Shown here: positions 53,025 to 53,688 of the stretch, piece after piece | Numbering within the stretch: the first letter of the stretch is position 1 | Layout: each line of letters starts with the position of its first letter | Source: Candidatus Poribacteria bacterium | GTDB lineage: Bacteria > Poribacteria > WGA-4E > WGA-3G | Strand: one strand, 5' to 3' | Assembly (NCBI GenBank): GCA_963664215.1 | Contig: OY761015.1 | Length of the DNA stretch: 64,000 nucleotides | Translations under genes and position numbers: made by a program | The notes under the pieces: generated by a model | Databases searched by the model: none | Told to the model about the DNA's origin: nothing | What the model saw: the letters and a program-made list of their open reading frames with translations, nothing else

Positions 53025-53056
53025 AAGCGACTCGGTATGTTCTGCGAAATTGTAAC

Positions 53057-53085
53057 TTGACAGGCACCAGAAAATGTGGTATACT
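53057..53085 (+). promoter_or_regulatory. near-consensus sigma70 promoter TTGACA-N17-TATACT, 33 bp outside IS right end, reading into ORF-free region
   Basis: TTGACA 53057-53062, spacer 17, TATACT 53080-53085; no plus-strand CDS downstream. Confidence 0.55.
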
Positions 53086-53091
53086 TTTAAC

Positions 53092-53660
53092 ATCAACGGG
53101 ATAGGAGAACAACCACCCACTTCTCTGTGGGTGTCCTATCCGCCCAGTTGTTCGGGTAGCGTTGAGGTTGGTGAAGTCCAACAAATACCACATTCGCACC
53201 TATGAGTTTCGGGGTTATGATCCCCCGTCGTTTGTGATGAGTTGCATATCTGGTACAAGTCGGGTATAGTCACGTAACTCTACCCCACCAGAAAGTTTTA
53301 GCAACGTCTTATCAAAGTATCGGTATACCTTATGGGGTAACAGAGGTATTCCGTAGTCGTGCATTGGCTGGCACCGCGAGTGTTGTCTCGTGTCACAAGT
53401 TGAAAAACTTGGAACGGCGTATAGTCCGTAAGAGCGTACCCAGCAACTGAAACAGGATTGCCAAGCAAAGAAACCCCATGCTTTAGCTTGCGGGAGCAGT
53501 CATTCCTAAATCAAAGTTGAGACTTGGTCCCACAGTGAAGTATTTATGAGATGGTAATATAAAAAATCAGAATCTTAATGAAAAAATTGGTAATCTTATC
53601 TGTTAGAGATACTTCAAGTGAAAAAGGATAGTAGAAACTGGGTAACTGATAAATCTTTTA
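53092..53660 (+). ncRNA. candidate structured non-coding RNA of unknown family (ORF-free ~570 nt downstream of strong promoter)
   Basis: No ORF >=60 aa on either strand in 52977-53657; nested/pseudoknot-capable helices at 53098-53156 (GGATAGGA..TCCTATCC, GAACAAC..GTTGTTC, CACCCAC..GTGGGTG); long-range complementarity GAAGUCCAAC (53178) with GUUGAGACUU (53540); RNase P-like segment CGUAAGAGCGUACCCAGCAAC. Confidence 0.35.
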
Positions 53661-53688
53661 TCGAACTCGCGTTAAGTAAAAAATAGCC

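Follow-up and report, generated by a model that had tools for sequence, protein, structure and literature searches.

A probable gene-less IS200/IS605 element that keeps a tnpB-type promoter and pseudoknotted leader and is split by an IS4-family insertion in a Candidatus Poribacteria genome

IS608 of Helicobacter pylori is the structural paradigm of IS200/IS605 transposition, in which the nucleotides just 5' of the hairpin foot read the cleavage sites. In IS200 of Salmonella, a stem-loop in the 5' untranslated region (UTR) sequesters the ribosome-binding site of tnpA. Elements of the IS1341 type carry tnpB, whose product is named 'RNA-guided endonuclease TnpB family protein' at NCBI. The group also has non-autonomous members, the palindrome-associated transposable elements or PATEs (Dyall-Smith et al. 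2011, PMC3119063; PMC10055086), and the PATE-like, gene-less IS605 derivatives described so far often encode omega-RNAs that are used in trans (Meers et al. 2023, PMC10055086). Here we analyse positions 53025-53688 of a 64,000-nt stretch of DNA (the window) from contig OY761015.1 of a Candidatus Poribacteria genome, a sponge symbiont. A first-pass annotation, made from the letters of the window, had presented this interval, which lies next to an IS4 element and is free of long open reading frames (ORFs), as a candidate novel structured non-coding RNA (ncRNA). Our results point to a 519-bp gene-less transposon whose promoter and folded RNA would descend from those of a tnpB gene. The other Poribacteria loci and contigs used for comparison are given L-numbers, and proteins P-numbers.

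The 2111 bp at 51393-53503 are a recent insertion of two nested mobile elements, an IS4/Tn5-like insertion sequence (IS) inside the 519-bp gene-less element. Two conspecific contigs, L087 and L088, were traced through the exact product of a lipoprotein-like ORF of the window (50408-51307), which is recorded on two contigs. L087 is 97-99% identical to the window and lacks 51393-53503 entirely; its empty site reads ...GTAATTTAC|TCCTAAATC... or, with more of the downstream flank, GTAATTTAC|TCCTAAATCAAAG. The flanks abut 51393 and 53503 without repeated bases, i.e., there is no target duplication. Because L087 joins 51392 directly to 53504, the interval is a composite of mobile-element DNA (from the block 53015-53503) and ancestral spacer (53504-53688). 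L088 is likewise without the insertion, and the spacer is kept at both empty sites, from 53504 in L087 and from 53559 in L088. In about 15 syntenic loci of other Poribacteria species we found no counterpart of 53025-53688: there, within 75-200 bp of the stop codon of the neighbouring ATP-binding cassette (ABC) transporter gene, lies a homologue of either the gene at 47754-48653 or the MacB-like permease gene (48663-49916). The absence of 53015-53503 in a conspecific, and of any counterpart at the syntenic positions, shows that this is not a stable chromosomal locus.

Two further observations concern the insertion site. About 105 bp common to L087 and the window (51343-51392 plus 53504-53558) are missing in L088, whose junction is located in an ATAAA-like repeat; either L088 may have lost them by deletion, or the small element of the IS605 type may lie within another tiny insertion. 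The spacer downstream of this ABC operon is also an insertion hot spot, and in L016 it holds a complete TnpB element.

The inner IS4/Tn5-like element has terminal inverted repeats and a transposase whose homologues are abundant in Poribacteria. It is a separate and later insertion, because its own 9-bp duplication lies inside the left-end hairpin of the small element. At each of the three independent sites compared, the IS lies within a CCCC...GGGG hairpin loop and has a 9-bp duplication (TACTTCAGT in L090, where the IS spans about 2854-4466, and TACCACGGT in L091, about 2862-4448). In the window this hairpin belongs to the left end of the gene-less element, whereas in L090 a TnpB element provides it at its right end, immediately after the tnpB stop codon. 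This suggests that the end hairpins of a different transposon family are a target of the IS. The IS4 element is therefore no mere neighbour of the interval, since it sits within the left-end hairpin of the small element. A delimitation of its ends as 41-nt inverted repeats without duplication (51404-51444 and 52985-53025) was rejected: the outer ~19 bp of these repeats are the split target hairpin plus the duplication.

The ORF-free DNA abuts the IS, and both are jointly absent from L087, as expected if the former were passenger DNA of the latter (a one-ended or transduced flank) or a degraded fragment of a host gene. We regard either origin as extremely unlikely. The IS has its own duplication within the hairpin, whereas the 2111-bp unit has none and has IS200/IS605-type ends. 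Three related copies of the IS (L089-L091; 87% DNA identity; two different sites) align only to 51406-53013 of the window and carry no sequence resembling the ORF-free region. As for a host gene, no ORF longer than 56 aa exists on either strand of 53025-53688, which bears out the absence of ORFs of 60 aa or more noted at first. A codon-usage log-odds scan trained on the genes of the window gave no coding signal in any frame of the interval (best 120-nt score 4.5, against 9.6 +/- 4.8 for real genes in frame), and neither a six-frame Pfam search at E <= 10 nor a concatenated six-frame search against 5.8 billion proteins returned a match for the region.

Removal of the IS and of one copy of its duplication reconstructs the 519-bp element (51393-51422 plus 53015-53503; Table 1), with the remaining duplication copy, 51414-51422, counted in the left end. 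The left-end hairpin then reads CCCCTGCC-TTCA-GGTAGGGG, starts 16 nt from the left end, and is nearly identical to that of the TnpB element of L016 (CCCCTGCCTTCAGGTAGTGG). The two ends have similar subterminal, imperfect CCCC...GGGG hairpins in the same orientation, and there are no terminal inverted repeats. The element thus retains the features expected of IS200/IS605 transposition: a position 3' of TTAN, the lack of target duplication, and end hairpins with short tails. Furthermore, in the 519-bp element, in a sister element of locus L041 and in the TnpB elements alike, the nucleotide immediately 5' of each hairpin is complementary to position four of the cleavage motif next to it, with different bases. 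The left-end pair is C/G in the 519-bp element, A/T in L041 and T/A for the TnpB elements, and the right-end pair is T/A in the 519-bp element and C/G in both L041 and the TnpB elements. This pattern matches the recognition rule of IS608.

The relation to TnpB elements is also visible in sequence. In a small targeted search with blastn, the reconstructed element is 69% identical to the L016 TnpB element over 116 nt (E 5.7e-10), and a profile built from TnpB elements only matches its positions 4-103 (E 1.5e-8 in a 923-nt targeted search). The same left end, i.e., hairpin, ATGTAGAC, promoter and leader, heads the TnpB elements of L016, L028, L025 and L090 and the copies encoding P0222 and P0151. 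These TnpB elements are flanked on the left by TTAT (the P0222 element at three independent sites, L102 and L016) and end on the right with (A)AG, a CCCC..GGGG hairpin and TCTATCAC|. TnpB is greatly expanded in Poribacteria, where one query matches 2195 proteins at E <= 1e-30. Identity is 80% or higher throughout the best 120 of them, and one and the same sequence may be recorded on as many as 12 contigs.

Past the left hairpin lies the promoter, TTGACA-N17-TATACT on the + strand, that had drawn attention to the interval. The window has 8 sites that match the promoter consensus at 11 or more of 12 positions, compared with 0.65 in shuffled sequences, and six of the eight are directly upstream of genes, including nusB. 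Because such sites far exceed the shuffles and mostly precede genes, this promoter is very probably real. A matching promoter is found in the same place, with a similar spacer sequence, in L016, L028, L025, L090, L092, L102 and the L041 element. Elsewhere in the window, a further 11/12 match, TTGACA-17-CATAAT at 48985-49013 (+), lies inside the MacB-like permease gene and antisense to it.

The predicted transcript starts near 53092 and opens with a folded leader. Crossing helices had been proposed at 53098-53156, and they do form a pseudoknot with covariation in TnpB elements. For the 85-nt leader domain the folding z-score is -4.19, and 53% of the ensemble falls into the minimum-energy structure. 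In an alignment of six TnpB elements from which the window was left out, 98.4% of cells are paired and 15 of the 31 pairs changed on both sides; the pseudoknot helix is paired in 100% of cells, with such double changes in 5 of its 7 pairs. None of 500 shuffles equalled this covariation, and sliding the partners against each other left 28-43% of cells paired. A MAFFT alignment that included the copy of the window misaligned the helices, and we therefore used a covariance model of the nested helices of the leader, R1, built without the window. With default filters R1 had no match in the window; with filters off, its best match in 20 kb (both strands) was 53090-53168 (+), full length, at 23.8 bits (E about 5e-4), and its top match in the L041 locus was the L041 element (13.3 bits, E 0.21). 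The leader of the window forms 30 of the 31 pairs, including 7 of 7 in the pseudoknot, and 17 of them differ on both sides from L092. The crossing helices are the conserved tnpB leader of this IS200/IS605 transposon lineage. The promoter and pseudoknot of the window are the tnpB promoter and 5' leader of that lineage, kept in a copy without tnpB.

A novel, free-standing chromosomal gene of the host for a large structured ncRNA (450-660 nt) would also be ORF-free and strongly promoted, and the fold of 53090-53545 (z = -2.85) might seem to fit it. Yet, the opposite strand scores the same (z = -2.98), and the value is only ~1.8 sd away from the background of 456-nt windows of this sequence (mean -0.40, sd 1.33, minimum -3.7). 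The unusual structure is confined to the first ~80 nt of the predicted transcript, the leader common to TnpB elements, and 53173-53473 folds like the shuffles (z = -0.72). The locus is also missing in a conspecific. Blastn and nhmmer searches against 78 related Poribacteria loci gave no homologue of the region, except a 25-nt hairpin match in L041, and there was no match in the phage and plasmid collections or to three viral-contig probes. A metagenome probe with the 18-mer GTAAGAGCGTACCCAGCA gave 8 chance matches only. A host RNA gene is thus largely refuted and very unlikely. What stands of the structured ncRNA first proposed is a real promoter and a conserved pseudoknotted domain that covaries across TnpB elements; the structured gene of ~450-660 nt does not, and its body has no homologues among the sequences searched.

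Known RNA families fare no better. A tRNA (4043-4115) is the sole match of Rfam 15 to the window at the gathering threshold. At E <= 10 with permissive filters, searches of 951 nt and of 475 nt yielded noise-level hits and no RNase P RNA, transfer-messenger RNA (tmRNA), 6S, OLE, GOLLD, ROOL or HEARO; group I and group II introns and the IS605-orfB motifs had no match in the region, and ARAGORN found no tmRNA. A divergent or decayed RNase P RNA (rnpB), which the first-pass annotation did not go so far as to call, is favoured only by the likeness of one block, CGUAAGAGCGUACC, to a conserved part of this RNA, and by a 9-bp, P4-like pairing between sites ~360 nt apart. The block is not accompanied by any RNase P match in the searches above. 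The pairing is at chance level, with 2 such helices observed and 2.8 +/- 1.9 in shuffles, and its 3' arm (53517-53526) is outside the inserted element, in spacer that is kept at the empty site. Moreover, the locus is dispensable, being absent in a conspecific, and the eight metagenome contigs that share the 18-mer are without any RNA family. To the limit of the tools used, rnpB is refuted, and we give it next to no credence.

If the element is not a host gene, it might still be a functional guide. Its RNA would then direct cleavage of empty TTAC-TCCTAAATC... sites, leading to the element being copied back, as a guide-RNA-only transposon. The geometry fits, because the promoter points towards the right end, whose hairpin and tail are intact, and the left flank carries TTAC. 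PATEs often encode omega-RNAs, as reported by Meers et al. (PMC10055086), and the sister element of L041, whose left-end hairpin is identical to the right end of the window's element over the 25 nt mentioned above, keeps an omega-RNA-like 3' region. To compare such regions we used R2, a model of 169 nt built from only three sequences (L016, L092 and L102), with 51 predicted pairs of which 13 have double changes. In the L041 element, R2 gives a full-length match (17 bits, E 1e-4) whose last position coincides with the right end of the element. In the window, R2 aligns to nothing but the 20 nt of the right-end hairpin (2.8 bits, E 1.9). The structure of the interior does not exceed that of shuffles, and no sequence similarity of the 519-bp element to TnpB 3' regions was found. 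A guide-RNA-only function of the window's copy is therefore improbable. Because R2 matches L041 fully and the window only at the hairpin, the L041 element looks like a leader-plus-guide-RNA element by this model, and the copy of the window like ends, promoter and leader only. The L041 element is the better guide-RNA-only candidate of the two. Comparison with the L030 empty site shows no target duplication there either. Its layout is TTAA|, 16 nt, hairpin, ATGTAGACGG, promoter (TTGACA-17-TATGAT with TG, 11/12), transcribed region, hairpin and tail TACCTATGAC|. It has the pseudoknot of the leader as well, and it folds with z = -6.5 on the transcribed strand.

Overall, the outer 519-bp element is very probably a non-autonomous, gene-less and PATE-like member of IS200/IS605, derived from TnpB-only (IS1341-type) elements and split by IS4. 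This reading is carried by the anatomy of the element, its presence/absence polymorphism, the homology of its left end, promoter and leader to those of TnpB elements, the covariation of the leader and the later insertion of IS4. Several points weigh against it, besides the near-failure of R2 in the window. Over 1.1 Mb, the TnpB-only profile did not recover the split left end in the intact window at E <= 1e-3. The right end shares with TnpB elements only its layout (AAG, hairpin, 8-10-nt tail) and no extended sequence. No second copy of the 519-bp element was found among the searched sequences, and no tnpA turned up in the window or in the compared loci, where no search was aimed at Y1 TnpA. 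Transcription from 53057-53085 is something that we infer. As for tnpB itself, tblastn of four Poribacterial TnpB proteins against the reconstructed element gave noise-level matches only; a short similarity seen by eye, AAATACCACATTCGC against the YKYQIR codons of the L028 tnpB, was not backed by any test.

This PATE-like element is without tnpB and without any recognizable omega-RNA scaffold, and what lies between leader and right end is ~300 nt of filler that neither folds nor codes. Its movement would have been by single-strand 'peel-and-paste', with a Y1 TnpA supplied in trans from another place. IS4 landed later in the loop of the left hairpin, making its 9-bp duplication, and probably immobilized the small element. 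The promoter may still fire and give a non-coding transcript headed by the leader. This transcript would leave through the right end into the spacer and overlap the convergent ABC gene at its 3' end, in antisense. An antisense transcript into this gene had been offered from the start as an alternative, and the geometry of the locus agrees with it.

In intact elements, the leader may control tnpB translation or the stability of the mRNA. It may damp translation or stabilize the mRNA; the 3' strand of the closing helix P0 and a duplicated copy of this strand cover the ~20 nt before the AUG in intact TnpB elements. The duplication allows alternative pairings. No Rfam family matches the leader, neither that of the window nor those of three TnpB loci that were scanned, and we found no published description of the motif in the literature, an absence that is not proof of novelty. 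A bolder proposal, which we find doubtful, is that the leader constitutes an undescribed class of cis-regulatory RNA for TnpB, such as a translational gate or a TnpB- or ligand-responsive switch; a weaker form of it would make the whole transcript a highly diverged omega-RNA acting in trans. If the leader were such a class, its survival in gene-less derivatives would imply that it acts in its own right: it might serve in trans, regulating the resident TnpB population or acting on it as a decoy, or it might be required while the transposon is a single-stranded DNA intermediate.

The ABC-transporter gene next to the spacer (53689-55536, - strand) encodes a protein 89-92% identical to many proteins of Candidatus Poribacteria metagenome-assembled genomes; exact look-ups of this protein and of the transposase returned no record. 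On the other side of the insertion, 49957-51392 is present in L087 and L088, and the syntenic loci of other Poribacteria species, such as L001 and L042, lack it. It contains the lipoprotein-like ORF, which has no Pfam match and is 33% identical to an ORF in a paralogous locus, L048, and an 85-aa ORF at 50078-50335. An 18-bp inverted repeat at the edges of this larger strain-specific region (49955-49972 and 53657-53674) was considered as a transposon end and rejected, as it is instead a dispersed 18-nt motif, TTTATCGAACTC[AG]CGTTA, that occurs in unrelated intergenic regions of Poribacteria. The motif is often preceded by a -10-like box or placed ~40 nt ahead of a start codon, and it may serve as an operator or a leader. 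The TTAT target of a TnpB element in L094 is formed by the last bases of the motif.

Table 1. Features of the nested insertion and of the related elements (window coordinates unless a locus is named)
Feature	Position	Strand	Remarks
TTAC target motif (transposon-adjacent motif-like)	51389-51392	+	Directly 5' of the left end; boundary after ...AATTTAC set by the L087 empty site
Left end: 16 nt CAATCCCTCGCTAAAG, hairpin 5' arm and loop (CCCCTGCC-TTCA), GG	51393-51422	+	
IS4 9-bp target duplication, GCCTTCAGG	51414-51422 and 53006-53014	+	From comparison of three insertion sites
IS4-family (Tn5-like) insertion sequence	51423-53005	-	Ends read CTTACTGTTACCCA...
IS4 transposase gene	51466-52866	-	Pfam Tnp_DNA_bind, Dimer_Tnp_Tn5, DDE_Tnp_1
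Second IS4 duplication copy and left-hairpin 3' arm TAGGGG (53015-53020)	53006-53020	+	
Left-end spacer starting ATGTAAGCG	53021-53056	+	Conserved as ATGTAGAC in TnpB elements
Sigma-70-type promoter TTGACA-17-TATACT, extended TG	53057-53085	+	Homologous to the tnpB promoter of the family
5' leader RNA domain	53090-53168	+	P0, P1, P2 and pseudoknot; covariation and covariance model
P0 closing helix	53090-53098/53160-53168	+	
P1 outer stem	53099-53106/53134-53141	+	
P2 inner stem	53114-53120/53127-53133	+	
Pseudoknot	53107-53113/53147-53153	+	7-nt internal loop with sequence just 3' of P1; GAACAAC with GUUGUUC
Element interior	53169-53473	+	No tnpB remnant, omega-RNA scaffold or homologue detected
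Right-end hairpin CCCCATGCTTTAGCTTGCGGG	53474-53494	+	Arms CCCCATGC-TTTA-GCTTGCGGG; 9 nt from the right end
Right-end tail AGCAGTCAT, 9 nt	ends 53503	+	Boundary set by the L087 empty site
Ancestral AT-rich spacer	53504-53688	.	Downstream of the ABC-transporter gene, outside the element; GC 28-34%
Leader copies	L016 9276-9371 (-); L092 and L102 about 1095-1200 (+); L028 921-1016 (-); L090; L025		
L041 element	L041 2651-3054	-	404-bp ORF-free insertion; absent from L030, L019, L021, L032
L016 TnpB element	L016 8024-9470		404-aa TnpB with RuvC and zinc-ribbon motifs
18-nt motif copies	Window 49955-49972 (-), 53657-53674 (+); L037 935; L039 4059, 2446; L042 775, 562; L094 968		

Our analysis has implications for annotation, because ORF-free DNA with a perfect promoter and convincing helices can be the left end of an RNA-guided-nuclease transposon that has decayed, and not a host RNA gene; sponge-symbiont genomes are rich in TnpB elements. 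For transposon biology, gene-less derivatives may keep the leader and an omega-like RNA, as in L041, or the leader alone, as in the 519-bp element. A covarying, pseudoknotted tnpB leader without a match in Rfam may merit attention, as may the insertion of IS4 in hairpin loops. For the host, the insertion puts an outward-facing strong promoter in convergence with an ABC-transporter operon in one strain and not in a close relative.

Among the known systems, the RNase P RNA of bacteria (RNaseP_bact_a/b) is similar to the interval in overall length and, according to the first-pass annotation, in one short block; the interval differs from it in having no covariance-model match, a dispensable locus and a P4-like pairing that is due to chance. 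Like IS608, the 519-bp element is inserted 3' of TTAC without duplication, and the base 5' of its hairpins complements the cleavage motif. Unlike IS608, it has neither tnpA nor tnpB, its hairpin sequences are unrelated, and its recognition by a TnpA is putative. The leader resembles the 5' UTR of IS200 in being a structured left-end leader over the region of translation start, an analogy that suggests translational damping, but the gene is tnpB, there are four helices including a pseudoknot, the sequence is unrelated, and the function is one that we infer. The IS1341-type elements of Poribacteria (L016 8024-9470, L092 and L102) share with the 519-bp element the left hairpin, the ATGTAGAC-type spacer, the promoter and the leader, as well as a right end made of AAG, hairpin and tail and a TTAN flank; the 519-bp element has neither a tnpB ORF or remnant nor an omega-RNA-like 3' match, and its identity to them is undetectable beyond the leader. 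Finally, like PATEs, it is a few hundred bp long, gene-less, and has ends in common with TnpB- or TnpA-bearing elements of the same genome group, with subterminal hairpins, no target duplication, a short motif at the insertion and presumed movement in trans. It differs from them in having no recognizable omega-RNA scaffold, in its strong promoter and covarying pseudoknotted leader, and in being interrupted by IS4.

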